Source: Synechococcus elongatus PCC 6301 (GTDB lineage: Bacteria > Cyanobacteriota > Cyanobacteriia > Synechococcales > Synechococcaceae). From it: 32,000 bases of DNA. Location: the NCBI RefSeq assembly GCF_000010065.1, contig NC_006576.1, positions 2,310,001 through 2,342,000 on the forward strand, read 5' to 3'. Shown piece by piece: positions 11,711-32,000 of the stretch (its first letter is position 1; every line of letters starts with the position of its first letter). The notes under the pieces were generated by a model that was not told the DNA's origin, made no database searches, and saw nothing but the letters and a program-made list of their open reading frames with translations. Both the position numbers and the translations under genes were made by a program.

Positions 11711-12472
11711 ATGCCTTCGAGCAATTTCGAGATTGATAGTCAGCAGCGAGCTTTGCGACTTGCTCGCCTCGTTCAACAAATCCGCGCTAACCTAGCAGGC
11801 CGCTCGCTGCGCCCTTTCGCAGATATGCTGCCTGCTCCTGAGAACCTCTCGAAGCGTAAGCTATCGCGGTTACTAGGTGTCTCGCCTACCCTGATCAACA
11901 AATATGAATCGGGGGAAATTGATCCTTGGGAAATTCGTTGGGGCCTAATGCGAAGGCTAGCGCGGCTGGCTGAACTCTCTCTAGAGCAGCTAGACGCTAC
12001 TCTGAGTGGGGATGAAACCTTTACCCAGCCAGAACTCGAGCAGCGGTCTGTTCCACCCCATGAGCTGATCAGCTCCATTCGGGGAGCGCTTGATCGCCTT
12101 GAAGCTAGCCTTGAGCATGTGCAGGGAGATGAGTCCCGCGAGTATTTGGTGCCTTGGTTTGGGCGTTACCTGCGGACCCTCTTGGCGGATCAGGCGCGGG
12201 AATCCCGCAAGACCTTGAGTGAGCTGACCGATGCTCTGATTGCTGCCCTCCCCAGTACCGATGCTGATCGGAGTGCCCTGCTGCGGAAGGTTTTTGAAGG
12301 GCAAGCTGAATTGACCGATCGCCAAATTGAGGTTGAATGCGTTGCCTTGGCGGCTGCCCTCAGCGAAGTGATTGAAGTCCCCGTCACGGCTGGGCAATTG
12401 CTGGCGCTACTGCCCGATGCCGAAATGCGATCGCAACTAGAAGCCTCGGGCTCGGGACAAGAGGGGGAGTAG
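11711..12472 (+). CDS. Hypothetical protein with an XRE-type helix-turn-helix
   Basis: The HTH-like segment KRKLSRLLGVSPTLINKYESGEI lies near the N-terminus; the rest of the ORF has no recognisable motifs. It follows a 269-bp AT-rich gap. Its 3' end overlaps the convergent GT4 ORF by 36 nt. Confidence 0.6.
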   Translation: MPSSNFEIDSQQRALRLARLVQQIRANLAGRSLRPFADMLPAPENLSKRKLSRLLGVSPTLINKYESGEIDPWEIRWGLMRRLARLAELSLEQLDATLSGDETFTQPELEQRSVPPHELISSIRGALDRLEASLEHVQGDESREYLVPWFGRYLRTLLADQARESRKTLSELTDALIAALPSTDADRSALLRKVFEGQAELTDRQIEVECVALAAALSEVIEVPVTAGQLLALLPDAEMRSQLEASGSGQEGE

Positions 12473-13387
12473 CCACGCTTCTAGACGTTGACCCATCGCA
12501 GCCAAGGAAAACCGTGCTTCGGCTTGGGCTCGACAGTAAGCGCGATCGAGGCTAGACAGTTGCCCAATTGCGTTGACGAGAGCAGCCTGTTGATCGGGTT
12601 CTACCAGCCAGCCACTCTTGCCCTGCTCAATAATTTCCAAGGGTCCGCCGCGGGCATAGGCTATCACTGGTACGCCACAGGCGAGGGCTTCAATGGCGAC
12701 GTTGCCAAAGGCTTCCACCCATTTTGGGGTCATTAACAGGCCTTGGCAGCGGCCCAAGCCACGTTGCAACTCATCGGTACTGACGAAGCCCTGATAGCTG
12801 ACGGCCCGATCGCCAAACTGCTGTTGGAGTCGTTGCCAATAGTCGGGTTCAGTCAGGGCACCCCAGACCCGCAACGGGAGGCCAGCCTGTTGAGCGGCTT
12901 GAATGGCATCTTCTAGGCCCTTTTCTGGTGCAATCCGTCCTACCCAGCCCAAGACCGGCTCTGGCTCTGGGTTAAACCCATAGGCTGCTAGGTCAAGGGC
13001 ATTGCCGATACAAAGGCAGCGATCGCCAAAGGGAAAGGTTGCTGCCTGAGCCAGACTGTGGACAGCGATGCTGCCGGGATAGCGATCGAGGCTTGTGGCG
13101 ATCGCCTGATCCATCACCTCAGATAGGGATCCCATGCTGATCAAATGGGCGACAGGCATCTTGAAAAACGGCGTCAGATATAGCGGTAGCCAGTCGTAGG
13201 CGAAGTTGAGGATCAGGTCAAAGTCGGTTTGCTGCTGGTGAGCTCGATCCCAGAGCCGGGCTAAAACACTCTCAGCAGGAATCTCAGCAGGAGTGGCGCG
13301 CCCGTGACTTTGAGCCGTGCTTTGCCAAGTCCCAGGCACCGTTTCCAGCGGCAAATCGGGCAGCACCGATCCAGCCGGCGCGAGCAC
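12437..13387 (-). CDS. GT4-family (group 1) glycosyltransferase, intact C-terminal 316 codons
   Basis: The C-terminal GT-B domain motifs GRIAPEKGLEDAIQAA and EAFGNVAIEALACGVPVIA..GG..E are present. The open frame starts only at GTG 13387 and lacks the N-terminal Gly-rich loop, which is encoded upstream in other frames. Confidence 0.75.
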   Translation of the reverse strand: MLAPAGSVLPDLPLETVPGTWQSTAQSHGRATPAEIPAESVLARLWDRAHQQQTDFDLILNFAYDWLPLYLTPFFKMPVAHLISMGSLSEVMDQAIATSLDRYPGSIAVHSLAQAATFPFGDRCLCIGNALDLAAYGFNPEPEPVLGWVGRIAPEKGLEDAIQAAQQAGLPLRVWGALTEPDYWQRLQQQFGDRAVSYQGFVSTDELQRGLGRCQGLLMTPKWVEAFGNVAIEALACGVPVIAYARGGPLEIIEQGKSGWLVEPDQQAALVNAIGQLSSLDRAYCRAQAEARFSLAAMGQRLEAWLLPLLSRARGF

Positions 13388-21310: not shown

Positions 21311-21907
21311 ATGCGCTCTGCGCTCGGACTTGGATTTTTGGCGATCGCGCTGGTGAGCGTGTTGCTGTTGATCAGTAACCTCGGCCTGCGCCTGCCGGTC
21401 TACTTTTTGACCCTGCAAACTCGTCCTCAACCCTTGGGACTCTGGTTGGTGTTGGCGATTGCGGCCGGCTTGCTCACTAGCGCTATCCTTCACCTTTGTC
21501 TGGGGTGGTTGGCATCGCCTGCAGGGGCGGCTCCAGCCAATGCAACGGCGGCTAATGCTACCGAACCGCGATCGCGACGACGCGGTGATTGGACTTTCAT
21601 GGGACGAGAAGCTGGGGGGCAACAACAACGCCGGAATTCCACTGCTGCCGACGCTCCCGAGCCTTGGGAAACCGCAGGCTGGTCGGCGCGAACCAGTGCA
21701 GAGGCGACACCGCCCCCGCGATCGCCTCGCCCTGAGGCATCGGCCTCCCCTCCGGCTGAACGCGTGATTGATACAGGCTTCCGGGTCATCAAACCGCCAA
21801 CTTCTGCTGCTGCAGAGCCCTCCCCAAACCGCCGCACGAACGCTGCGCCACCATCAGCAACTTCCACGGAAGACGATTGGGATTTTGTTGAGAAAGACGA
21901 TTGGTAG
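21311..21907 (+). CDS. Membrane protein with two N-terminal TM helices (LapA/DUF1049-like) and a Pro/Ala-rich tail
   Basis: 198-aa ORF starting 2 nt after ubiX. The TM segments are LGFLAIALVSVLLLISNLGL and LGLWLVLAIAAGLLTSAILHL. The C-terminal half is low-complexity. Confidence 0.6.
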   Translation: MRSALGLGFLAIALVSVLLLISNLGLRLPVYFLTLQTRPQPLGLWLVLAIAAGLLTSAILHLCLGWLASPAGAAPANATAANATEPRSRRRGDWTFMGREAGGQQQRRNSTAADAPEPWETAGWSARTSAEATPPPRSPRPEASASPPAERVIDTGFRVIKPPTSAAAEPSPNRRTNAAPPSATSTEDDWDFVEKDDW

Positions 21908-22555: not shown

Positions 22556-23632
22556 ATGGTTGATTCCCTCCAAAAACCCGAACTCGAAGAATTGCGTCCG
22601 GGCATTAAGGCTCCTGCCAAAGAGACAATCCTGACGCCTCGCTTTTACACCACTGACTTTGAAGCGATGGCCAAGATGGATCTCTCGCCTAATGAGGATG
22701 AGCTACGGGCCATCTTGGAGGAGTTCCGCGCCGACTACAACCGCAAACACTTTGTCCGCACGCCGGAGTTTGATGGTTCAGCCGCTGACATGGACCCAGA
22801 GACCAAAAAGGTCTTTGTTGAATTCCTAGAGCAGTCCTGCACCTCCGAATTCTCTGGCTTCCTGCTCTACAAAGAGCTCAGCCGTCGCATCAAAAACCGT
22901 AACCCGCTCTTGGCGGAATGCTTTGAGTTGATGGCTCGTGATGAAGCTCGCCACGCTGGCTTCCTCAACAAGTCGATGAGCGACTTTGATCTGCAGCTCG
23001 ACCTCGGCTTCCTGACTGCTAATAAGAAGTACACCTACTTCAAACCGGCCTACATTTTCTATGCCACCTACCTGAGCGAGAAGATCGGTTACTGGCGCTA
23101 CATTACGATCTTCCGTCACCTTGAGCAGCATCCGGAATATCGGATTTACCCGATATTCAAGTTCTTTGAGAACTGGTGCCAAGACGAAAATCGTCACGGT
23201 GACTTCTTCGACGCCCTGATGAAGGCTCAACCTTCGACGGTGCGTGGCTTTGTTGCCAAACTCTGGTGCCGCTTCTTCCTGCTGGCAGTCTTCGCAACGA
23301 TGTACATCCGTGACGTCCAGCGTAAAGAGTTCTACGAAGCCTTGGGCCTAGATGCCCGTGAGTACGATCGCCACGTGATCGCCAAGACCAACGAGACTTC
23401 AGCTCGGGTCTTCCCAGTGGTTCTCGATGTCGATCATCCCAAGTTCTACGATCGCCTTGAAACCTGCATCGCCAACAACAACCAGTTGGCTGCAATCGAG
23501 GCAACAAGTGCACCTAAGCCAGTGAAAGTGCTGCGGAAGCTCCCCTACTACCTCTCCAATGGTCTGCAGCTCCTGAAGCTGTACTTGGTTAAACCGTTGG
23601 AGTCAGATGTCTACCAGCCTGCGGTTCGCTAA
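22556..23632 (+). CDS. acsF: Mg-protoporphyrin IX monomethyl ester oxidative cyclase (aerobic)
   Basis: The N-terminus [14 protein letters not shown] and the di-iron motifs [10 protein letters not shown] and [10 protein letters not shown] are present. The ATG at 22556 gives about 358 aa. Confidence 0.95.
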
Positions 23633-23656
23633 CGTTCAGCAGCCTTAGATTCCACC

Positions 23657-23697
23657 AAAGCAGGGTCGCTATCAGTTACCCTGCTTTACTATTTTCT
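23657..23697 (+). terminator. Rho-independent terminator after acsF
   Basis: A perfect 10-bp stem (AAAGCAGGGT at 23657-23666, ACCCTGCTTT at 23678-23687) encloses an 11-nt loop and is followed by ACTATTTTCT. Confidence 0.75.
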
Positions 23698-23795
23698 GAG
23701 TTCTAGCCTGCTTCCCAACTGAGAGCGATCGTGCTCAGAAGTTGACATTGTCCTTCTATGATGGGGAAGCTCTGAACTGTCCAATCCTTGACTCA

Positions 23796-24536
23796 ATGAC
23801 CTTGACGTCTTCTCAAAAACCTTTTCGGCTACTGGTGGGCGATCGTGAGGTTCAGGAAAGTGACTTAGCAGCACTGCTCCAAAAGCATCAACTCCTTCCA
23901 GAACTCGTCAAACGCATGCGCTTTGCGCAAGTTATTGAGGGGATTGAAGTCCAGCCCGATGTCCTTGAGCAGGAATGTCAGGCCTGGTGTAAGCAGAATG
24001 GCATTGCTCCACAACAGTTACCCCAACTGCTAGCGCAGCAGCAAATCTCGCTTGAGCAATGGATGTCATCGGTTGAAAATCGATTGCGCCTGCGCCTCTT
24101 TCAAGAACGTGAATTTAGCCACCGCGCTGAAAATCGCTTTCTCAAGCGGAAGAGCCAGTTGGATCTGGTGACCTACTCCTTACTCCGGCATTCGGATGGC
24201 CATCTCATTCAGGAGCTCTACCAGCAACTCTTGCATGGAGAAGCTACGTTTGAGGATTTGGCAACTCAATTTTCGCAAGGCCATGAGGCTAAGACGGCAG
24301 GTAAGTTGGGCCCTGTACCCTTGAGTCAGCCCCATCCAGCTCTTGCTGAAGTCTTGCGTACCGCCCAACCAGGGCAGATTCTCCCACCCCGGAATCTGGA
24401 ATCTTACTGGTTGATTATCCGCCTCGATCAGCTGCAGCCAGTGGCATTTAATGAGACAATTCGCCGGCAGATGCTGCAGGAATTGTTTGATGAATGGTTA
24501 GGTGCGGAAGTTCAGCAAACACTAAATACTCTGTAA
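23796..24536 (+). CDS. Parvulin-like (PpiC-type) peptidyl-prolyl isomerase domain protein with a SurA-like N-terminal region
   Basis: The C-terminal segment LLHGEATFEDLATQFSQGHEAKTAGKLGPV..PALAEVL..GQILPP..ESYWLIIRL follows the parvulin pattern (DF..LA...S......GG.LG), although degenerate. I prefer the ATG at 23796 over the track TTG at 23742. It is the first gene of the low-GC block. Confidence 0.65.
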   Translation: MTLTSSQKPFRLLVGDREVQESDLAALLQKHQLLPELVKRMRFAQVIEGIEVQPDVLEQECQAWCKQNGIAPQQLPQLLAQQQISLEQWMSSVENRLRLRLFQEREFSHRAENRFLKRKSQLDLVTYSLLRHSDGHLIQELYQQLLHGEATFEDLATQFSQGHEAKTAGKLGPVPLSQPHPALAEVLRTAQPGQILPPRNLESYWLIIRLDQLQPVAFNETIRRQMLQELFDEWLGAEVQQTLNTL

Positions 24537-24550
24537 GTTGTCCCTAAACA

Positions 24551-27500
24551 ATGGTTGCTATTCCTTCGAACCTCTGTGAACTTCTAGCAGGGCAAGCCTA
24601 TTTTCAGGCCTATCCTGCCGCGGCCTATGAACCGTGGCGAGCACAACTCCAGCTGGGTAAGTTTGCAGTTGGTCAACCTTTACTCCCCCCAGAGCAGCTG
24701 CCCAGTCATGTCTTAGTTGTCTTGAGTGGCCAGATTCGGGTTGTCTATCAGCCGGTGGGTCAGGTTCGAGGAATTAGCTTAGGCCGCTTCGGCGCTGGGG
24801 CTTGTCTTGGCTGGGCACCTCTGTTGCGGGGATGCCCCGGAGAAGCGAGTAGTGGATCTGAGGCAGGAGCTGTTCTCGCGATTCCAGCTGCTGCCTTCTT
24901 AGACATGCTGAAGCAGTTGCCAGACTTGGCTCAGGCTTTTGGCAGCCAAGCCGCGCCTAGTGAGGTGATGTCGGTTTTACAGGCCCAGTCTTGGCCCAGT
25001 CCACTCACCGTTCAGGAGTGGTCGGCCTTTGTCCAAGAGTTATTGCCCCAGACGCGGGTGCAGCTTGTGGATACGGTACATAGCGGTGCTAACACGCTGT
25101 TGTCTAGGGACTACGACTGGTATGTGAGTGGTAACAATGGCACCTCGGCGCTTGGTCTGCCGATTGATCTGGAGGCTGCGATTCCCTCGCCTAAGGGTAG
25201 TCTGGCCCTGCGCTTGCTTGGGTTGCCTGCAGGAACTGTTGCGCAACGGCAGACGCGCAACCACCATGACGCTGTAGGAACTTCAGAAGAACCTTCAACG
25301 GCTGCTACTACAGATAGTGCCACTGTTACCGATTCACCTTCGCCTTGGACCTCTACCGTCCCTGCTGATCTGTCAGCGGACCTCTACGACGGCAGTCAGC
25401 GCAGTCAAAAATTCCCAGTCGAGCGCGGAAATGATCCCGTGAGTGAGGCACAAGCCTGCCTCAAAATGATCGCGCGATCGCTCAAAATTCCTTTTCGCCG
25501 CGACCAAGTTCAACGCGTTATTGAAGAACAATATCGACGCCTCAAATCAATTTCTCTGCAAGAGCTCGCAGTGTTGCTGGAAATGCAGGCGCTGCGCAGT
25601 CAGATTTTGCAGCTACGTCTGGTTGATTTGCCCCGAGTGCCTTTACCTGCGCTGATTGCTTGGGAAGAAGGCCATGCTGTGCTTTACGCGGTTGATGCAA
25701 CTAGCATCACTTTTGCCGATCCTCGACAAGGCTTAATAACGCTTTCTTTGGCGGAATTTCAGCAGCGCTGGGGCAACGCTGGCACTATTTTGCTGGCCAC
25801 CAAAACCCAGTTCACCCAAAGTCAACGTTTTGGCCTGAGCTGGTTTTGGCCTTCAATCCAACGCTACCGAGTGCGCTTGATTGAGGTGCTGATTGCCTCA
25901 CTAGTCGTTCAGCTGTTTACGCTAGCCAATCCCCTAATTATCCAACAGGTGATTGACAAGGTTATCGGCCAAGGCAGTCTTAATAACCTCAATAGCTTTG
26001 CTGTCTTACTGGTTATCTTAGGTGTTTTCCAAGGGCTGCTCAGCAGCCTAAGAACCTATCTTTTTGCTGATACAACTAACCGTATTGACCTCAAGCTAGG
26101 CAGTGACATTATCGATCGACTACTGAAGTTACCTCTGCGCTATTTCGAGCGGCGACCTGTAGGGGAACTGAGTAGCCGGGTTCAAGAGCTGGAAAAAATT
26201 CGTAGTTTTCTGACTGGCACAGCTCTCACAACCGTGATGGATGCGATGTTCTCGGTCATCTACATCCTAGTCATGCTGGTTTATAGCTGGTTCTTGACAC
26301 TGGTTGCACTCTCGACAGTCCCCATCTTTGTAGCCATCACATTTTTTGCCTCGCCGGTAGTTAGACGGCAACTGCGGGAAAAAGCAGAACGGAATGCTGA
26401 AACACAGTCCCAACTTGTTGAGGTTTTGAGTGGTATCCAGACTGTTAAAGCTCAAAATATTGAACTCAAAGCCCGTTGGCAGTGGCAAGAGCGCTATGCC
26501 CGTTATATTGCCGCAGGATTCCGTAACATCAACACGTCAACTGCGGCGTCTTCACTCACCAATTTCTTTAACCAACTGTCAGGCTTACTCGTTCTTTGGG
26601 TGGGTGTGTATTTAGTATTCGACAACCAATTGAGCCTTGGTCAACTGATTGCATTCCGTATTATTTCTGGTTACGTTACCCAACCGTTATTACGACTCGC
26701 TCAGTTGTGGCAAAACTTCCAAGAGACAGCTCTATCGCTTGAGCGTTTGGCCGATATCGTTGACACCCCCCAAGAATCGGATGATGACGACCAGGGCAAG
26801 ATTCCAATGCCAATGATCAACGGCAAAGTTGAATTTCGGAATCTAAGCTTCCGCTTTGGCGAACAAGGGCCATTGCAGCTTTCGAACGTGACGCTGGAGA
26901 TACCTGCTGGTGAGTACGTTGGTATTGTTGGGCAGAGCGGCTCTGGCAAGAGTACCCTCATGAAACTTTTGCCAAGACTTTACTCGCCGCTTGAAGGTGA
27001 GATTTTGATTGATGGCTACGATATCAGCAAGGTTGGACTATATTCCCTTCGGCGCCAAATCGGCATTGTTCCTCAAGATAGTTTGCTTTTCCAAGGAACC
27101 GTCGAAGAAAATATCTCTTTAACGAAGCCGAATGCAACAACTGACGAAATCATTACTGCTGCTAAAGCGGCAGGTGCTCATGATTTCATCATGACTTTGC
27201 CTTTAGGCTATAACACTCGTGTTGGTGAGCGTGGTGGTGCCCTTTCGGGCGGCCAACGACAACGAATTGCGATCGCTAGAACCGTCTTGCAAAATCCTCA
27301 GCTTTTGATCCTTGACGAGGCAACGAGCGCCCTAGACTATGATACGGAGCGTCAGGTCAGCATCAACCTCCAACAACATTTCCGGGGCAAAACAGTATTC
27401 TTCATTACTCACCGCCTAAGTACAGTCCGACATGCTGACCGAATTATCGTTATGGATAAGGGAGCTATGGTTGAACAGGGTAGCCATGATGAATTAATGG

Positions 27501-27553
27501 AACTTAGAGGTCGCTATTTCTGTCTATATCGTCAACAAGATGCTTTGAACTAA
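24551..27553 (+). CDS. HlyB-type ABC exporter: cNMP-binding-like domain, then C39-like domain, then 6-TM domain, then ATPase
   Basis: 1000 aa. A CAP-like beta-roll pattern occupies roughly residues 30-130 (HVLVVLSGQIRVVY..LGRFGAGACLGW..AVLAIPAAAFLDML). The C39-like region lies around residues 290-420. ATPase motifs: Walker A GQSGSGKST (26930-26956), signature LSGGQRQR (from 27242), Walker B LLILDEATSALD (from 27302). Confidence 0.9.
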   Translation: MVAIPSNLCELLAGQAYFQAYPAAAYEPWRAQLQLGKFAVGQPLLPPEQLPSHVLVVLSGQIRVVYQPVGQVRGISLGRFGAGACLGWAPLLRGCPGEASSGSEAGAVLAIPAAAFLDMLKQLPDLAQAFGSQAAPSEVMSVLQAQSWPSPLTVQEWSAFVQELLPQTRVQLVDTVHSGANTLLSRDYDWYVSGNNGTSALGLPIDLEAAIPSPKGSLALRLLGLPAGTVAQRQTRNHHDAVGTSEEPSTAATTDSATVTDSPSPWTSTVPADLSADLYDGSQRSQKFPVERGNDPVSEAQACLKMIARSLKIPFRRDQVQRVIEEQYRRLKSISLQELAVLLEMQALRSQILQLRLVDLPRVPLPALIAWEEGHAVLYAVDATSITFADPRQGLITLSLAEFQQRWGNAGTILLATKTQFTQSQRFGLSWFWPSIQRYRVRLIEVLIASLVVQLFTLANPLIIQQVIDKVIGQGSLNNLNSFAVLLVILGVFQGLLSSLRTYLFADTTNRIDLKLGSDIIDRLLKLPLRYFERRPVGELSSRVQELEKIRSFLTGTALTTVMDAMFSVIYILVMLVYSWFLTLVALSTVPIFVAITFFASPVVRRQLREKAERNAETQSQLVEVLSGIQTVKAQNIELKARWQWQERYARYIAAGFRNINTSTAASSLTNFFNQLSGLLVLWVGVYLVFDNQLSLGQLIAFRIISGYVTQPLLRLAQLWQNFQETALSLERLADIVDTPQESDDDDQGKIPMPMINGKVEFRNLSFRFGEQGPLQLSNVTLEIPAGEYVGIVGQSGSGKSTLMKLLPRLYSPLEGEILIDGYDISKVGLYSLRRQIGIVPQDSLLFQGTVEENISLTKPNATTDEIITAAKAAGAHDFIMTLPLGYNTRVGERGGALSGGQRQRIAIARTVLQNPQLLILDEATSALDYDTERQVSINLQQHFRGKTVFFITHRLSTVRHADRIIVMDKGAMVEQGSHDELMELRGRYFCLYRQQDALN

Positions 27554-27594
27554 CGAGAATTCCTTTGCACTGCTTCCATTTTTAAGAGAAAGAC

Positions 27595-28920
27595 ATGTCT
27601 ATTTCATCGCCTACACCCAGTCCAGAACCAGCTCAAACCCCAGCTACGGATGCTTCTTTCAATCCTGATCAAGATGTAAGTCTGAATCAGAGTCGCTTAT
27701 GGTCGCGACTGACAATTTGGACGCTAGTTGGAGTGACAGCTAGTGCAACTGCTTGGGCTTGCATCGCACAAATTGATGAAGCCGTACAAGTTCAAGGACA
27801 ATTAGAGCCGAAAGCAGCAGTCAAGGATGTTCAAGCTCCTGTGGGGGGTGTTCTTGAACGGCTAGAAGTGAAGGAGGGGCAGCGAGTTACACAAGGCCAA
27901 ATATTAGCGAGATTTAATGCGACTACAGTTGCAGAGCGGATTCGGTCTCTAACAGAGATCCGGGAACGCTTAGTTGCTGAAAATCAGACCTTCCGAGCGC
28001 AAATTGGCGAATCATCTGAAGGTTCAGTTTCCGTCAACCAACAACAGCGAATTGAAGCAGCCCGCCGTGAATTTGAAAGTCGGCAAGAAGCAGCTCGTTT
28101 AGAAGCATCTCAGCTTAAGCAACAGCAACTTCAAGTTGAAAGTGAACTACAGCAAGTTCGATACTCGCTAGACTTGAACCAGCGAATTCTCAATGACCTA
28201 CGCCCCCTGTACGAGGAAGGGGGAATTGCTAGGACTCAGTACCTCAAGCAAGAAGAGACAGTTAGTCAGCTAGAAAGCACACTAAGAAAAAATCAAGCAG
28301 AACTCCAACGCTTGCAGTTTGCGGTCAGCCAAGCTGAAGCTCGCTTAACTAATACGCAAACAGTCACATTTTCAGAGGCTAGGGGACGTATTGAAGAAAA
28401 TGCCCGTCGAATCGCTGAGATTGATAGTCAAATTACAGAAGCTAAACAAACATTGAAATATCAGATCGTTCGTGCTCCTCAAAGCGGAACAGTTTTCGAT
28501 ATTACAGCTCAAGGGCCGGGATATGTAGCAAACACCTCAGAACCACTAATGAAGCTGGTACCTGATGATGAACTTGTTGCTCGACTGTATATTCCCAACA
28601 AAGATATAGGATTTGTTCGGACTGGTCAGGATGTGGATATTCGTATTGACTCCTATCCGTTTAGTGAATATGGAGATCTCAAGGGTAAGTTGACGCGAGT
28701 TGGCTCAGATTCTCTTCCTCCCAACGATACCTATCAATATGTTCGCTTCCCAGCAGAAGTGACGTTGCAAGAACAAAAACTTGTTAGCCGGGGTCGGGAG
28801 CTGCCAATCCAATCAGGGATGTCTGTTTCGGCCAGTATCCGTCTACGTCAAAGACCTGTCATCACTTTGCTTTCAGATCTCTTCTCGCGTAGTAGTGATG
28901 CACTCAAGACAATTCGCTAG
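27595..28920 (+). CDS. HlyD-family membrane fusion protein (type I secretion adaptor)
   Basis: 441 aa. It has an N-terminal TM helix (LTIWTLVGVTASATAWACIA), a lipoyl-like motif (VQAPVGGVLERLEVKEGQRVTQGQILARF), a long coiled-coil middle region and a C-terminal beta-barrel segment (GMSVSASIRL). Confidence 0.9.
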   Translation: MSISSPTPSPEPAQTPATDASFNPDQDVSLNQSRLWSRLTIWTLVGVTASATAWACIAQIDEAVQVQGQLEPKAAVKDVQAPVGGVLERLEVKEGQRVTQGQILARFNATTVAERIRSLTEIRERLVAENQTFRAQIGESSEGSVSVNQQQRIEAARREFESRQEAARLEASQLKQQQLQVESELQQVRYSLDLNQRILNDLRPLYEEGGIARTQYLKQEETVSQLESTLRKNQAELQRLQFAVSQAEARLTNTQTVTFSEARGRIEENARRIAEIDSQITEAKQTLKYQIVRAPQSGTVFDITAQGPGYVANTSEPLMKLVPDDELVARLYIPNKDIGFVRTGQDVDIRIDSYPFSEYGDLKGKLTRVGSDSLPPNDTYQYVRFPAEVTLQEQKLVSRGRELPIQSGMSVSASIRLRQRPVITLLSDLFSRSSDALKTIR

Positions 28921-28935
28921 CTCTTAACTATCTCA

Positions 28936-30066
28936 ATGGCTAATAATAACCAGCTACAAATAGATAGTCTAGTCGCTGCAATTCGCCGTGAGGCTACACA
29001 GCTCACAGATCATGAGGAAGCCTTTTGCACAACAATAGTCTCCTCTCAGCAACAGTCGTTAACTGAAATTGACAGATCAATCAATGCTGCAATACAAGCG
29101 GTGGAGGACTTGGTAAAGCCTCGTTTGTCCGCTCGGCCAAGCCCTCGTAATTTCTTCAAAAAACTCTGCACAAAAGTAGGGCTTACGATTCTTGATCGAC
29201 TTGAGAGGCGACGTTGTAAAGCTGAACTTACTCTCCTAGAGACCATTCAATATTTACGGGCTAGTCAGCAACAGCTCAGAGCGGAATTTAATGATTTCCA
29301 ATCTGTAACTGATCAAGCTTTAGTCCGACAGTTTAATCATCTTCAGCGGCAAATCGATCGCACAAGTGGTTGCGTAAACTTAAACCCTGACTTAGAAAAA
29401 CTATTAGAAGCTTTTTACTGTCAATTTGAATCTGAATATCGAGGGTCTAGTGAATCTGTTCGCCATCGACTGAGACCCTATCATGATCGCCTACTCAACT
29501 CTGACTATCCTCTAGAAATCGTTGACCTGGGTTGTGGTCGGGGTGAATGGTTGTCTTTAGTTAATCAGCTTGGTCACAAAGCGAAAGGCATTGACTGTAA
29601 CCCGGAATTCGTTAACCTTTGTAAGCAGCAAAATTTAGCGGTTGAGTTGGGAGATGCTATTGTCTGGTTGCATTCACAGGCAGATAACAGCTTAGATGTT
29701 ATTTCTGCTTTTCATGTGATTGAACACCTATCTTTTACAACTCTAGCTGATTGGTTACAGCAAATATATCGAGTTTTAAAACCCCAAGGATGGTTGCTTC
29801 TGGAGACACCGAATATTAGCCAGTTCCATGTTGGGCTTGTTGATTTTTATCGAGATCCTACTCATATTCATAAGGTTCATCCCCAAACAATTAAGACTTT
29901 ACTTCAATGTCTTCGGTTTACTGATATAGAGATAGGCTACGTTGATGCAAATGGAGATAAAGTTCAATGGTTGCCAACTGAAGAGGTAACGTTGCGAGAT
30001 CCTGGACAATATGGAGCTTTACCAGCTGATATGGGCATTATCGCCCGAAAAAGAATAGGGCTCTGA
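28936..30066 (+). CDS. Class I SAM-dependent methyltransferase with a roughly 180-aa predicted coiled-coil N-terminal extension
   Basis: Motif I is IVDLGCGRGEWLSLV, followed by DVISAFHVIEHL and LKPQGWLLLETPN. Just before the catalytic domain sits FYCQFESEYRGSSESVRHRLRPY. The N-terminal region is heptad-rich and Gln-rich. Confidence 0.85.
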   Translation: MANNNQLQIDSLVAAIRREATQLTDHEEAFCTTIVSSQQQSLTEIDRSINAAIQAVEDLVKPRLSARPSPRNFFKKLCTKVGLTILDRLERRRCKAELTLLETIQYLRASQQQLRAEFNDFQSVTDQALVRQFNHLQRQIDRTSGCVNLNPDLEKLLEAFYCQFESEYRGSSESVRHRLRPYHDRLLNSDYPLEIVDLGCGRGEWLSLVNQLGHKAKGIDCNPEFVNLCKQQNLAVELGDAIVWLHSQADNSLDVISAFHVIEHLSFTTLADWLQQIYRVLKPQGWLLLETPNISQFHVGLVDFYRDPTHIHKVHPQTIKTLLQCLRFTDIEIGYVDANGDKVQWLPTEEVTLRDPGQYGALPADMGIIARKRIGL

Positions 30067-30070
30067 GCTT

Positions 30071-31117
30071 ATGCGGATTGCGATCGCAACAGTTCAAGTT
30101 CCCTTCTGCCGAGGAGGTGCAGAACTGCATGCAGAGCGTTTGCAAGCTGCTCTACAAAACTATGGATATCAATCTAATATTCTGACCATACCGTTTGCCT
30201 TCTCTCCCCCACAAGTAGTTAGCGAATCCATAGATATTTGGCAATCAAGAGCAATTCAGCAGCTTGTTGCGGCGAGCTGTGATGCTTTGGTTACACTTCG
30301 CTTCCCCGCCTATCTCATTAAGCATCCGAAACGCGTTCTATGGCTATTGCATCAGCATCGTGCAGTCTATGACCTTTGGGAGACACCCTACACAGATGAG
30401 CTATCTAAGAGTTCAGAAGGAAAAGCTTTACAACATAAAATTCAGGCTATTGACACAAGAGAAATTAGTCAATATCAACATCGATTTAGTAACTCAATAA
30501 CGGTTTCTGAAAGACTTTATCAATTTAACGGTATCACCTCTGAATTTCTTTATCATCCACCACCACTGGTTGGTCGATACTACTGCCAGCCAGCTCAGCC
30601 ATTTATTTTCTGTCCTAGCCGACTAGAGGATCTGAAACGTCAAGATTTATTGATTGAAGCAATCGCGAAACTACCCGATGTATGTGTAATCCTCGCTGGT
30701 GAAGGCGGTAACCGGCATCGTCTTGAAGCACTAATCTCAGATTTAGGACTGCAAGATCGGGTACGGTTGCTGGGGCATATCAGCGAAGCAGAACTATTGG
30801 CTTTTTATGCCAATTGCCGGGCAGTGTTCTATGCTCCCTATGATGAGGATTTTGGCTACGTTACGCTTGAAGCAATGCTTTCCCGTAAGCCCGTTATTAC
30901 TTGTCTAGATTCTGGTGAACCTGCTCGTATTATTCAGCATCAACAGACAGGATGGATTTGCGAACCAACCCCTGATGCGATCGCTGAGGTTATTCAATGG
31001 TGTTGGCAACATTCACATCAACTAGAAGATATTGGCATTGCTGGATGGGACCACTATCAAAGCCTTGGTATTTCTTGGGAAAACGTGGTAAATCGTTTAA
31101 CTTCTTCGTTCGCGTAG
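30071..31117 (+). CDS. GT4-family (group 1) glycosyltransferase
   Basis: 348 aa, starting 4 nt after the methyltransferase stop. The N-terminus is MRIAIATVQVPFCRGGAE and the C-terminal domain carries EDFGYVTLEAMLSRKPVIT..G.P.E (the E-x7-E region). Confidence 0.85.
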   Translation: MRIAIATVQVPFCRGGAELHAERLQAALQNYGYQSNILTIPFAFSPPQVVSESIDIWQSRAIQQLVAASCDALVTLRFPAYLIKHPKRVLWLLHQHRAVYDLWETPYTDELSKSSEGKALQHKIQAIDTREISQYQHRFSNSITVSERLYQFNGITSEFLYHPPPLVGRYYCQPAQPFIFCPSRLEDLKRQDLLIEAIAKLPDVCVILAGEGGNRHRLEALISDLGLQDRVRLLGHISEAELLAFYANCRAVFYAPYDEDFGYVTLEAMLSRKPVITCLDSGEPARIIQHQQTGWICEPTPDAIAEVIQWCWQHSHQLEDIGIAGWDHYQSLGISWENVVNRLTSSFA

Positions 31118-31210
31118 AAGTTGATCTGTAGAACTTTGCGGGTGTCATTAATTGCTATCAAGAGTTACAATGACAGGTCATTCAGCTGTGTAATTGTGGC
31201 TTTTTAACTA

Positions 31211-32000
31211 TGCAGATTGGCATTATTGCTCCCAGCTCTGTCCCCTTCTGCATTGGTGGAGCTGAAAAATTTTGGTGGGGATTACAACGAGCCTTTAATG
31301 ATCTAACACCTCACGCAGCTGAATTAATTAAGCTACCATCGCCTGAAAATAATATCTACGACTTAATTCAAAGTTATCAACGGTTTTCACGATTTAATCT
31401 GAATCATTTTGACCTGCTAATAAGTAGCAAATATCCTGCTTGGATGGTTAATCATCCCCGCCATCTTTGCTATCTTCAACATCGTCTTCGTGGCCTTTAT
31501 GATACTGATAATGGTCATCAAGGAAATTTGAACTTAGCTCGCTATTCTCAACTCCAAAAAATTGAGAAAATCCTTGAAAAAAATGGCGATCGCTCCCAGC
31601 TAGAGCTTTTATTCTCTGAATTGAACGATTTCTTGAAAAATGAGCCTAGTGATTCTAAGCTTTTAGAGTTCCCTGGACAATTGATTCGGAAAGTTATTCA
31701 CTTTTGCGATCGCATTGCCTTGAGCCCTACTGAGATTGCTGGTTACGCTGCGATTTCCCAAAATGTTGCCCAGCGCAAAAACTACCTTCCTGATTCGGTA
31801 CGTCCGAAAGTAATTTATCATCCCTCTGATTTAGAAAAATTCTATTGTGATAAACAAGATTACTTTTTTACTATTAGTCGTTTAGATAACGCCAAGCGAG
31901 TCAGTTTGCTGATTTCTGCAATGCAGCAAGCTAAAACAGATATTCCATTACTGATTGCAGGGACTGGACCTGAATCAGAGAGTCTTAAAAAACAAGCTGG
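31211..32000 (+). CDS. GT4-like glycosyltransferase, paralogue of the preceding gene; 3' end lies beyond the window
   Basis: The track omits it because there is no stop in the window. Hand translation from ATG 31211 is open to position 32000: MQIGIIAPSSVPFCIGGAEKFWWGL..YFFTISRLDNAKRVSLLISAM..LLIAGTGPE. Confidence 0.75.

Follow-up and report, generated by a model that had tools for sequence, protein, structure and literature searches.

The window analysed in this work is a stretch of 32,000 nt whose distal part carries six open reading frames (ORFs) on the forward strand, which correspond to Synpcc7942_1906 to Synpcc7942_1901 of Synechococcus elongatus PCC 7942. An exact protein match to an S. 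elongatus chromosome was obtained, the lengths and the order of the ORFs in the window are identical to those of Synpcc7942_1901-1907, and the six genes lie beyond acsF (Synpcc7942_1907), 3' of which a leaky intrinsic terminator is found (positions 23657-23697, + strand) that consists of a G+C-rich stem of 10 bp with a U-rich tail behind it (-23.3 kcal/mol, z = -5.4). The first gene of the run (23742-24536, +) encodes a parvulin-like protein of the PpiC type (Synpcc7942_1906), the annotated start of which is the ATG at 23796, giving 246 aa, and not the TTG at 23742. It is followed by the genes for an HlyB-type ABC exporter of type I secretion (Synpcc7942_1905; 24551-27553, +) and a type I secretion periplasmic adaptor of the HlyD family (Synpcc7942_1904; 27595-28920, +), and we refer to these three genes as the triad. 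The remaining genes, referred to here as the cassette, encode a SAM-dependent methyltransferase (Synpcc7942_1903; 28936-30066, +) whose N-terminal region is made up of long, coiled-coil-like helices, a GT4 glycosyltransferase (Synpcc7942_1902, GT4a; 30071-31117, +) and a two-domain GT4 of 793 aa (Synpcc7942_1901, GT4b; 31210-32000, +), of which the window contains the first 263 codons, the gene extending past its end. A preliminary description of this DNA had reported six same-strand ORFs with these domains, and this is confirmed by the ORF coordinates and by the Pfam and NCBIfam profile searches from which the domain calls are derived. The gaps of 14, 41, 15, and 4 nt that it gave were also recovered, but the last gap measures 92 nt and not 93 nt.

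Synpcc7942_1906 is a predicted parvulin (PpiC-type) on the basis of a Rotamase domain (PF00639) that scored above the gathering threshold (40.8 bits vs. a cut-off of 21.7), the match covering only positions 21-96 of the model; its score against TIGR04500 (NCBIfam) was far under the cut-off. In Synpcc7942_1905, a cNMP-binding-like domain (aa 38-122; Pfam cNMP_binding, 25 bits, slightly under the cut-off) is followed by a C39-like domain (aa 294-419; Peptidase_C39), a transmembrane domain (443-713; ABC_membrane) and a nucleotide-binding domain (777-926; ABC_tran). This protein matched the HlyB-type model TIGR01846 with 751.8 bits (cut-off 725.55), and its best solved relative, also its best match in the PDB, is HlyB from E. 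coli (575 bits, E = 3e-171), the bacteriocin exporter PCAT1 scoring 376 bits. In a MAFFT alignment with HlyB and ComA as references, the column of the catalytic Cys (Cys in ComA, Tyr in HlyB) is occupied by E, G, or A wherever a cyanobacterial sequence covers it (seven sequences), and Synpcc7942_1905, which has Glu in this column, lacks the catalytic residue; the catalytic His is present in S. elongatus and not in the other orthologues. Judged from its sequence, the C39-like domain is of the substrate-docking type that is typical of protein exporters, and it is not a peptidase. The same three-part N-terminal architecture, on an ABC exporter of roughly 1000 aa, is found in HetC of Nostoc PCC 7120, which combines cNMP-binding, C39, and ABC exporter parts and whose cNMP-like domain binds ppGpp (PMC10986499). 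However, HetC keeps both the catalytic Cys and His, is an active peptidase and has no adjacent adaptor, whereas Synpcc7942_1905 is without the Cys and has HlyD adjoining it. An exporter of bacteriocins or double-glycine peptides was considered and ruled out, since the catalytic Cys is missing, the closest structural relative is HlyB, and small ORFs for leader peptides are absent from the vicinity; the NHLP and bacteriocin models of NCBIfam also scored far below their cut-offs on Synpcc7942_1905, which argues against membership of the PCAT group.

Synpcc7942_1904, located 41 nt downstream of the ABC gene, matched TIGR01843 with 239.6 bits (cut-off 208.65), and, relative to the other cyanobacterial orthologues, it has a shorter alpha-helical hairpin. 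In the 32-kb window and the 10 kb that follow, no gene was found for a TolC-like partner or for a substrate protein bearing an RTX or C-terminal signal, and no RTX-like gene is present in the same interval; the preliminary description was thus correct that the window holds no substrate ORF. In Synechocystis PCC 6803, as reported by Agarwal et al. (2018), the S-layer protein Sll1951 is exported by Sll1180 (HlyB analogue), Sll1181 (HlyD analogue), and Slr1270 (TolC). The S. elongatus pair is like Sll1180/Sll1181 in gene type, as a cyanobacterial HlyB-type ABC protein is combined with an HlyD adaptor, and probably also in that substrate and outer-membrane channel are encoded elsewhere; it is unlike that system in the shorter helical hairpin of its HlyD.

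In the methyltransferase Synpcc7942_1903, the Methyltransf_23 domain spans aa 175-324, with about 150 residues ahead of it, and in the AlphaFold model two long helices (residues 4-60 and 73-145) precede the methyltransferase fold, which has pLDDT above 90. Relatives of this protein carry the name 'O-antigen chain-terminating methyltransferase' in some sources. However, no match to WbdD was obtained by phmmer at E <= 0.001 or among the best 50 Foldseek matches, the best match being the uncharacterised methyltransferase 3dli. Its assignment to the WbdD family was rejected because no specific match by sequence or fold was seen, and we therefore claim only that it may work like WbdD; a capping or chain-terminating role is proposed for it. 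The GT4a protein (Glycos_transf_1, 100.9 bits) is 33.5% identical over its full length to a 348-aa GT4 from a manC-manB-wzm-wzt cluster of Ignavibacteriales. For GT4b, the fragment in the window reached 26.9 bits with Glycos_transf_1 (cut-off 26.4), two such domains are present in the full protein, and its best solved relatives are the mannosyltransferases WbaZ-1, PimA, and PimB. The sugar of the O-antigen is probably mannose or rhamnose-like.

Homologues of the methyltransferase are found in wzm-wzt(Wzt_C)-methyltransferase-GT4 clusters at all three of the loci examined (Mastigocladopsis, an Ignavibacteriales MAG and a further metagenome contig), and no HlyD-like gene is present in these three clusters. 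The preliminary description had noted the absence of wzm and wzt. This holds for the 32-kb window and for 10 kb past its end, but not for the genome, as PCC 7942 possesses both wzm (Synpcc7942_1126) and wzt (Synpcc7942_1244), located about 0.7-0.8 Mb away and apart from each other; the 432 aa of this Wzt are, by length alone, sufficient to include a Wzt_C domain.

In the polymannose pathway of E. coli O8/O9a, WbdA is a two-domain GT4, WbdB/C are GT4 enzymes, WbdD is a coiled-coil terminating methyltransferase and Wzm/Wzt has a cap-binding C-terminal domain; the P. aeruginosa CPA D-rhamnan cluster is a comparable O-antigen system. The cassette of S. elongatus is similar to these systems in that it combines one single-domain and one two-domain GT4 with a SAM methyltransferase bearing a long helical region, and in that its mutants group with those of wzm and wzt (see below). 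It is further similar in that its homologues adjoin wzm, Wzt_C-bearing wzt, manC, manB, and gmd/rmd-type genes. The helical region of Synpcc7942_1903 is, however, N-terminal and not C-terminal as in WbdD, a kinase domain is lacking, and, unlike the situation in O8/O9a, wzm and wzt are dispersed and distant from the cassette.

The co-transcription of the six genes that was surmised from their spacing is borne out by published data, in which a single transcript of 11,132 nt (no. 723) covers seven genes from Synpcc7942_1907 (acsF) to 1901 (Vijayan et al., 2011, Table S1, PMC3219970), and no terminator was found between HlyD and the methyltransferase. Although this transcript was called continuous, the published reads per nt are 115 at 1907 and 17 at 1906. 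In a set of 21 RNA-seq samples, the co-variation of neighbouring genes breaks most strongly between ABC and HlyD (SD of log2 ratio 0.36), the corresponding values being 0.16 for HlyD and the methyltransferase and 0.08 for the methyltransferase and GT4a. An additional promoter may be present near the ABC/HlyD boundary, and it would make insertions in HlyD polar on the glycan genes. A consensus scan of positions 23400-32000 yielded counts that were not above chance for either promoters (13 vs. 9.7 in shuffles) or terminators (8 vs. 8.4), the hairpin behind acsF being missed because of the loop-size limit of the scan, and no convincing -35/-10 pair was seen by eye just upstream of HlyD.

The triad was present in the same order at 10 other cyanobacterial loci (L003-L009 and L013-L015), at each of which a parvulin-like homologue is found directly upstream of the ABC gene and no methyltransferase or GT4 gene downstream. 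This phylogenomic sample is small, as the scan of genome contigs gave 8 loci, and it comprises about six independent lineages from that scan and three that were reached via HlyD homologues. The HlyD orthologues of these triads share 37-51% identity with Synpcc7942_1904. Large proteins adjoin the triad at some of the loci, viz. an RTX protein of 1508 aa (L006), giant cadherin/FG-GAP proteins (L014), and RHS/He_PIG proteins (L015). Beyond the S. elongatus lineage, linkage of the exporter with methyltransferase and GT4 genes is thus not observed at any of the 10 cyanobacterial loci. The triad of parvulin-like, ABC and HlyD genes is a separate type I protein-secretion module that is widely conserved in cyanobacteria. 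Near the triad of Pseudanabaenaceae, a divergent cluster of genes for a GT2, DegT, GFO/IDH/MocA, a hexapeptide transferase, and a methyltransferase was noted. This cluster was considered as a second case of linkage and judged to be due to chance, as it occurs in one lineage and on the opposite strand and its genes are unrelated to the cassette in the window.

Comparison of S. elongatus strains also separates the two halves of the block. The triad is 85-98% identical between strains, and the flanking genes are mostly 85-100% identical, whereas the corresponding values are 57-67% for the methyltransferase, 64-82% for GT4a, and 69-83% for GT4b. The identity of the DNA between strains collapses exactly at the stop codon of HlyD, and one strain has an additional gene of the GDP-mannose-dehydratase family within the cassette. 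The set of methyltransferase, GT4, and double GT4 behaves, in these respects, like a hypervariable O-antigen cassette. The junction of 11-16 nt between HlyD and the methyltransferase is nevertheless retained throughout the S. elongatus strains, and also in a relative with an 82% identical HlyD, and the GC3 of HlyD (0.34) is the same as that of the glycan genes, the value for the ABC gene being 0.49. In view of this GC3, HlyD and the cassette may have some history or function in common.

The phenotypes of mutants can be compared from published RB-TnSeq data, in which insertions were enriched in the flask biofilm by about 15-fold for 1901, 20-fold for 1902, 11-fold for 1903, and 10-fold for 1904, and were neutral for 1905 (ABC, 1.2-fold) and 1906 (parvulin-like, 1.1-fold). 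The two halves of the block therefore differ in mutant phenotype, since the insertions in 1905 and 1906 are neutral where those in 1901-1904 are enriched 10- to 20-fold and have in common a phenotype of the O-antigen type. This difference and the lack of linkage at the 10 other loci are two of the outcomes that the preliminary description had named as refuting its own reading. In the literature, 1901, 1902, and 1904 were grouped with wzm and wzt as genes for O-antigen production, 1902 being placed in group IG12, and the mutants of wzm and wzt have a phenotype in common with those of 1901 and 1902 (PMC9260433). The fitness effect of insertions in 1904 is weaker (T0b/T0a of 0.84 vs. 0.32-0.79 for 1901-1903), and such insertions are, per kb, about three times less abundant than those in 1905 or 1906. 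Both of these observations are as expected for partial polarity on the genes that start 15 nt downstream, and as the expression of HlyD varies together with that of the glycan genes, polarity is the simplest account of the phenotype of 1904 insertions.

Based upon these results, the six-gene run is best explained, with a probability of about 75%, as two independent and known modules that are placed head to tail and transcribed in one direction. The first module, the triad, would act with an unlinked TolC-like channel and presumably exports large proteins with a C-terminal signal, of the RTX, adhesin, or S-layer type, which are presumably encoded elsewhere in the genome. The second would be that part of an ABC-transporter-dependent O-antigen pathway which polymerises and caps the chain and which varies between strains. 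In it, the GT4 enzymes may build a lipid-linked chain of homopolymer type in the cytoplasm, the methyltransferase would cap and terminate this O-antigen chain, and the capped chain would be exported by Wzm (1126) and Wzt (1244), both unlinked, for its ligation to lipid A-core. Both modules belong to kinds of system that have already been described, and as two known systems adjoin each other here, the block is an ordinary one and not a new machine for glycoconjugate export.

It is unlikely, by comparison, that the adjacency itself is functional, in that HlyD is needed for display of the O-antigen or that an exported surface protein is attached by means of the co-transcribed O-antigen genes, although readings of this kind would explain why insertions in HlyD act like O-antigen mutants and those in ABC do not. 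A precedent is provided by Caulobacter crescentus, in which the rsaA-rsaD-rsaE type I locus for the S-layer is reportedly followed directly by genes for O-antigen synthesis (Awram & Smit, 2001). The two loci are similar in having an ABC and MFP type I pair immediately beside O-antigen glycosyltransferase genes, and the combination of type I secretion and O-antigen genes has thus been described before, contrary to the impression of novelty in the preliminary description. They differ in that rsaA, which encodes the Caulobacter substrate, adjoins the exporter genes and a tie between S-layer and O-antigen has been demonstrated there, whereas no linked substrate gene was found in S. elongatus. RsaA is anchored through smooth LPS (PMC3034196). 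An indirect coupling of the Caulobacter kind, in which a secreted protein of the S-layer or adhesin type is anchored to, or requires, the O-antigen and co-transcription coordinates both, we regard as improbable. Besides this anchoring of RsaA, the single annotated transcript spanning the block, the co-variation of HlyD with the glycan genes, the tight HlyD-methyltransferase junction that is kept despite the turnover of the cassette, and the export of S-layer and RTX proteins by cyanobacterial type I systems such as Sll1180/Sll1181 with Sll1951 all speak for such a coupling. However, no candidate gene for a surface protein is present in the window or its flanks, the linkage is absent from the 10 other cyanobacterial loci, and the ABC and parvulin-like mutants, when screened for biofilm and settling, were without any phenotype related to the surface. 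Moreover, an O-antigen cassette needs a conserved neighbour for homologous replacement in any case, for which no functional tie is required.

A direct role of HlyD (1904) in the production of O-antigen or surface glycan, independent of the HlyB-like ABC protein and perhaps as adaptor for another exporter, is highly unlikely. Its listing among the O-antigen genes, the roughly 10-fold enrichment of its insertions beside neutral ABC insertions, its cassette-like GC3, and its shortened alpha-hairpin are consistent with such a role, but Synpcc7942_1904 is a clear orthologue of the triad adaptor, both by identity and by its score above the TIGR01843 cut-off, and it is 90-98% conserved between strains where the cassette reaches 57-83%. 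The weaker fitness effect and sparser insertions of 1904 fit partial polarity, and none of the three wzm/wzt clusters contains a gene like it. Finally, it is most improbable that a product glycosylated and methylated by the methyltransferase and GT4 enzymes is exported by the HlyB/HlyD pump itself, as the preliminary description had suggested from the tight spacing (to which the single annotated transcript may be added) and the lack of substrate and wzm/wzt genes in the window, because the ABC protein is a close relative of HlyB with the docking domain of a protein exporter, its mutants do not have the 1901/1902 phenotype that the mutants of the distant wzm and wzt share, and the modules can be separated in every other lineage of the sample.

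The interpretation of this block as two adjoining modules carries a caution that tight spacing, and even real co-transcription, is no proof that neighbouring modules cooperate. As HlyD is grouped with the glycan genes by its transcription, the published phenotypes of 1904 insertions should be re-read as probable polarity. If, on the other hand, the surface-protein reading were true, the S-layer/O-antigen locus of Caulobacter would have its counterpart among cyanobacteria in this block. For S. elongatus, the two-module reading delimits a strain-variable O-antigen cassette that is bounded exactly by the stop codon of HlyD and by dcd, and the variability of this cassette bears on grazing, phage resistance, and the flocculation traits that are used in biotechnology.

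The six open reading frames that follow acsF on the + strand were all confirmed in position and orientation, and Pfam and NCBIfam bear out the domains that the preliminary description had assigned to them. They encode, in order, a parvulin-like protein with a PpiC-type Rotamase domain (23742-24536; Synpcc7942_1906), an ABC protein comprising cNMP-binding-like, C39-like, ABC_membrane and ABC_tran domains, which passes the curated HlyB model TIGR01846 (24551-27553; 1905), an HlyD adaptor that passes TIGR01843 (27595-28920; 1904), a Methyltransf_23 protein (28936-30066; 1903), and two Glycos_transf_1 (GT4) proteins, GT4a (30071-31117; 1902) and GT4b (31210 to the window end; 1901). The intergenic gaps are 14, 41, 15, 4 and 92 nt, and gene order and lengths are the same as those tabulated by Vijayan et al. 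(2011) for Synpcc7942_1907 (acsF) to 1901. An S. elongatus chromosome of 2,695,906 bp encodes the GT4 protein without any difference. In the AlphaFold model of the methyltransferase, two long helices (residues 1-150) are followed by a confident methyltransferase fold. On the full contig GT4b is complete (793 aa, a two-domain GT4) and is followed by dcd on the opposite strand and then by housekeeping genes; no wzm/wzt or RTX-type gene was found up to 10 kb beyond on this contig or elsewhere in the window. Another GT4 gene, about 10 kb upstream on the minus strand (12437-13387), is by position Synpcc7942_1918, annotated as a UDP-glucose:tetrahydrobiopterin glucosyltransferase, and is unrelated to the block.

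Downstream of acsF lies a hairpin of high stability that ends in a U-rich tail. The co-transcription proposed for the block is supported by transcript 723, a single 11,132-nt unit of 7 genes extending from 1907 to 1901 (Vijayan et al., PMC3219970, Table S1). As 5' ends inside ORFs were outside the scope of that method (PMC3219970), it leaves room for internal promoters. Co-variation was assessed with RNA-seq counts per gene from Simkovsky et al. 2022 (PMC9260433; 21 samples): for neighbouring genes, the SD of their log2 ratio was 0.14 for acsF and the parvulin-like gene, 0.26 for the latter and the ABC gene, 0.36 for ABC-HlyD, 0.16 for HlyD-methyltransferase, 0.08 for methyltransferase-GT4a and 0.20 for GT4a-GT4b. 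Coverage in the same counts is 0.82 reads per bp for the ABC gene and climbs to 1.26 for HlyD. On these data the block behaves as one read-through unit, with a probable extra promoter near the ABC/HlyD boundary, and HlyD is expressed together with the glycan genes, not separately. A promoter-like pair (GTGTCA-18-TACAAT, 31142-31171) is present in the 92-nt gap before GT4b; published read density still drops across this gap, from 0.31 to 0.10 reads per bp. Table S2 of Vijayan et al. gives an antisense transcript of low level (no. 570; 28649-28949, minus strand; PCC 7942 coordinates 1978100-1978400) that covers the HlyD/methyltransferase junction, and four further ones opposite the parvulin-like gene and the ABC gene. 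A promoter-like site (TAGACT-17-TATTAT) is present on the minus strand at 28971-28943.

The secretion half forms a module of its own, and a conserved one. When species-representative genomes were scanned with the first 760 residues of the ABC protein, seven cyanobacterial loci were identified, and three additional ones were reached via HlyD homologues. All ten (L003-L009, L013-L015) share one gene order, a parvulin-like gene directly upstream of a cNMP/C39-like ABC gene followed by HlyD, and in none of them are methyltransferase or GT4 genes found downstream. This three-gene module appears to be conserved, and its neighbours vary from lineage to lineage: in an Acaryochloris MAG the gene immediately upstream encodes a 1508-aa RTX protein, L014 has giant cadherin/FG-GAP proteins, and a Scytonema locus has RHS/He_PIG proteins. 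The nearest solved structure to the ABC protein is E. coli HlyB (575 bits, versus 376 for a bacteriocin exporter), and in every orthologue another residue takes the place of the C39 catalytic cysteine, as in HlyB. All features of this half point to protein export. It matches the Synechocystis Sll1180/Sll1181 type I system, and its ABC protein is built like Nostoc HetC (cNMP-C39-ABC), minus the active peptidase. No described role for the PPIase-like member was found in the literature. In Pseudanabaenaceae (L003:1-8434 and the syntenic L005 and L007-L009) a set of sugar-modification genes on the opposite strand (GT2, DegT aminotransferase, GFO/IDH/MocA oxidoreductase, hexapeptide acyltransferase, amine oxidase and Methyltransf_23) borders the triad, and an AbrB-like regulator and a Ser/Thr kinase follow downstream.

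In its behaviour the glycan half resembles an O-antigen cassette. In four other S. elongatus-type genomes or contigs, amino acid identity to the window is 85-100% for flanking genes (63% for one 198-aa ORF) and 85-98% for the secretion triad (82% for HlyD in one relative), and it is 57-67% for the methyltransferase, 64-82% for GT4a and 69-83% for GT4b. DNA alignment places the collapse of identity exactly at the HlyD stop codon, and dcd, on the other side of the cassette, is 99-100% identical. In S. elongatus GCA_036630085.1, an extra GDP-mannose-dehydratase/epimerase-family gene (L017:12264-13217) sits between the GT4 and the double GT4 in the opposite orientation, which suggests a different (6-deoxy-hexose) O-antigen chemistry in this strain. 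The 198-aa ORF (21311-21907; Synpcc7942_1909 by position), which has no Pfam match and whose neighbours are 85-97% identical between strains, is a second, small hypervariable gene near the block. Methyltransferase homologues from Mastigocladopsis repens, an Ignavibacteriales MAG and a further contig are each located in a cluster of the type wzm - wzt (carrying Wzt_C) - methyltransferase - GT4. Among the genes of these clusters are a 776-aa double GT4, manC, manB and gmd/rmd-type genes, and GT4a has a counterpart of 33.5% identity over its full length in the Ignavibacteriales one. Several relatives are named 'O-antigen chain-terminating methyltransferase' by JGI. The wzm gene of PCC 7942 (1126) and its wzt gene (1244, 432 aa) are about 0.7-0.8 Mb from the block. 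Functionally, the cassette is comparable to the O8/O9a pathway of E. coli and the CPA pathway of P. aeruginosa; a test for homology of the methyltransferase to WbdD found none.

Simkovsky et al. (PMC9260433) list 1901, 1902 and 1904, along with wzm and wzt, among the genes for O-antigen production. Based upon their insertion counts, normalised to a neutral gene, enrichment in the flask biofilm is about 15x for 1901 (GT4b), 20x for 1902 (GT4a), 11x for 1903 (methyltransferase) and 10x for 1904 (HlyD), and 1.2x and 1.1x for 1905 (ABC) and 1906 (parvulin-like), respectively. For essentiality, genes 1901-1903 are called 'beneficial' and 1904-1906 'non-essential' (PMC9260433 supplement). Hence, the glycan phenotype does not extend to the ABC and parvulin-like genes, and HlyD insertions share it more weakly. 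The proposal that the block forms a new export system for a glycosylated and methylated product is thus not supported, as the triad recurs without the cassette in all ten loci and ABC insertions lack the phenotype.

The simplest account of the HlyD phenotype is polarity, because this gene is only 15 nt upstream of the methyltransferase gene and the two are co-expressed. Insertions in the ABC gene would escape such an effect if they are followed by a promoter, as the expression data suggest. Two other readings are of low probability: that HlyD has a direct role of its own, or that a secreted surface protein is tied to the O-antigen as in Caulobacter crescentus, a species already described as having a type I secretion pair right next to O-antigen genes. 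In that species RsaA is anchored to smooth LPS (PMC3034196). Both are kept alive by three characteristics of HlyD. Its GC3 (0.34) is at the level of the cassette, compared with 0.49 for ABC and about 0.65 for the genome; across 24551-32000 the values step from about 0.65 in ordinary window genes to about 0.50 in the parvulin-like and ABC genes and 0.32-0.35 in HlyD and the three glycan genes, so that the second step is at the ABC/HlyD boundary, whereas between-strain divergence begins at the HlyD/methyltransferase boundary. Further, HlyD (441 aa versus 492-540 aa in other cyanobacterial orthologues) has an alpha-helical hairpin with one arm about 55 residues and the other 18 residues shorter than in five other cyanobacterial orthologues, and the shortened hairpin is also present in the relative with the 82%-identical HlyD. 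Lastly, the short HlyD-methyltransferase junction is kept in all S. elongatus strains. The block consists of two systems that are already known, from a model organism, and for most of its genes a published role is on record.
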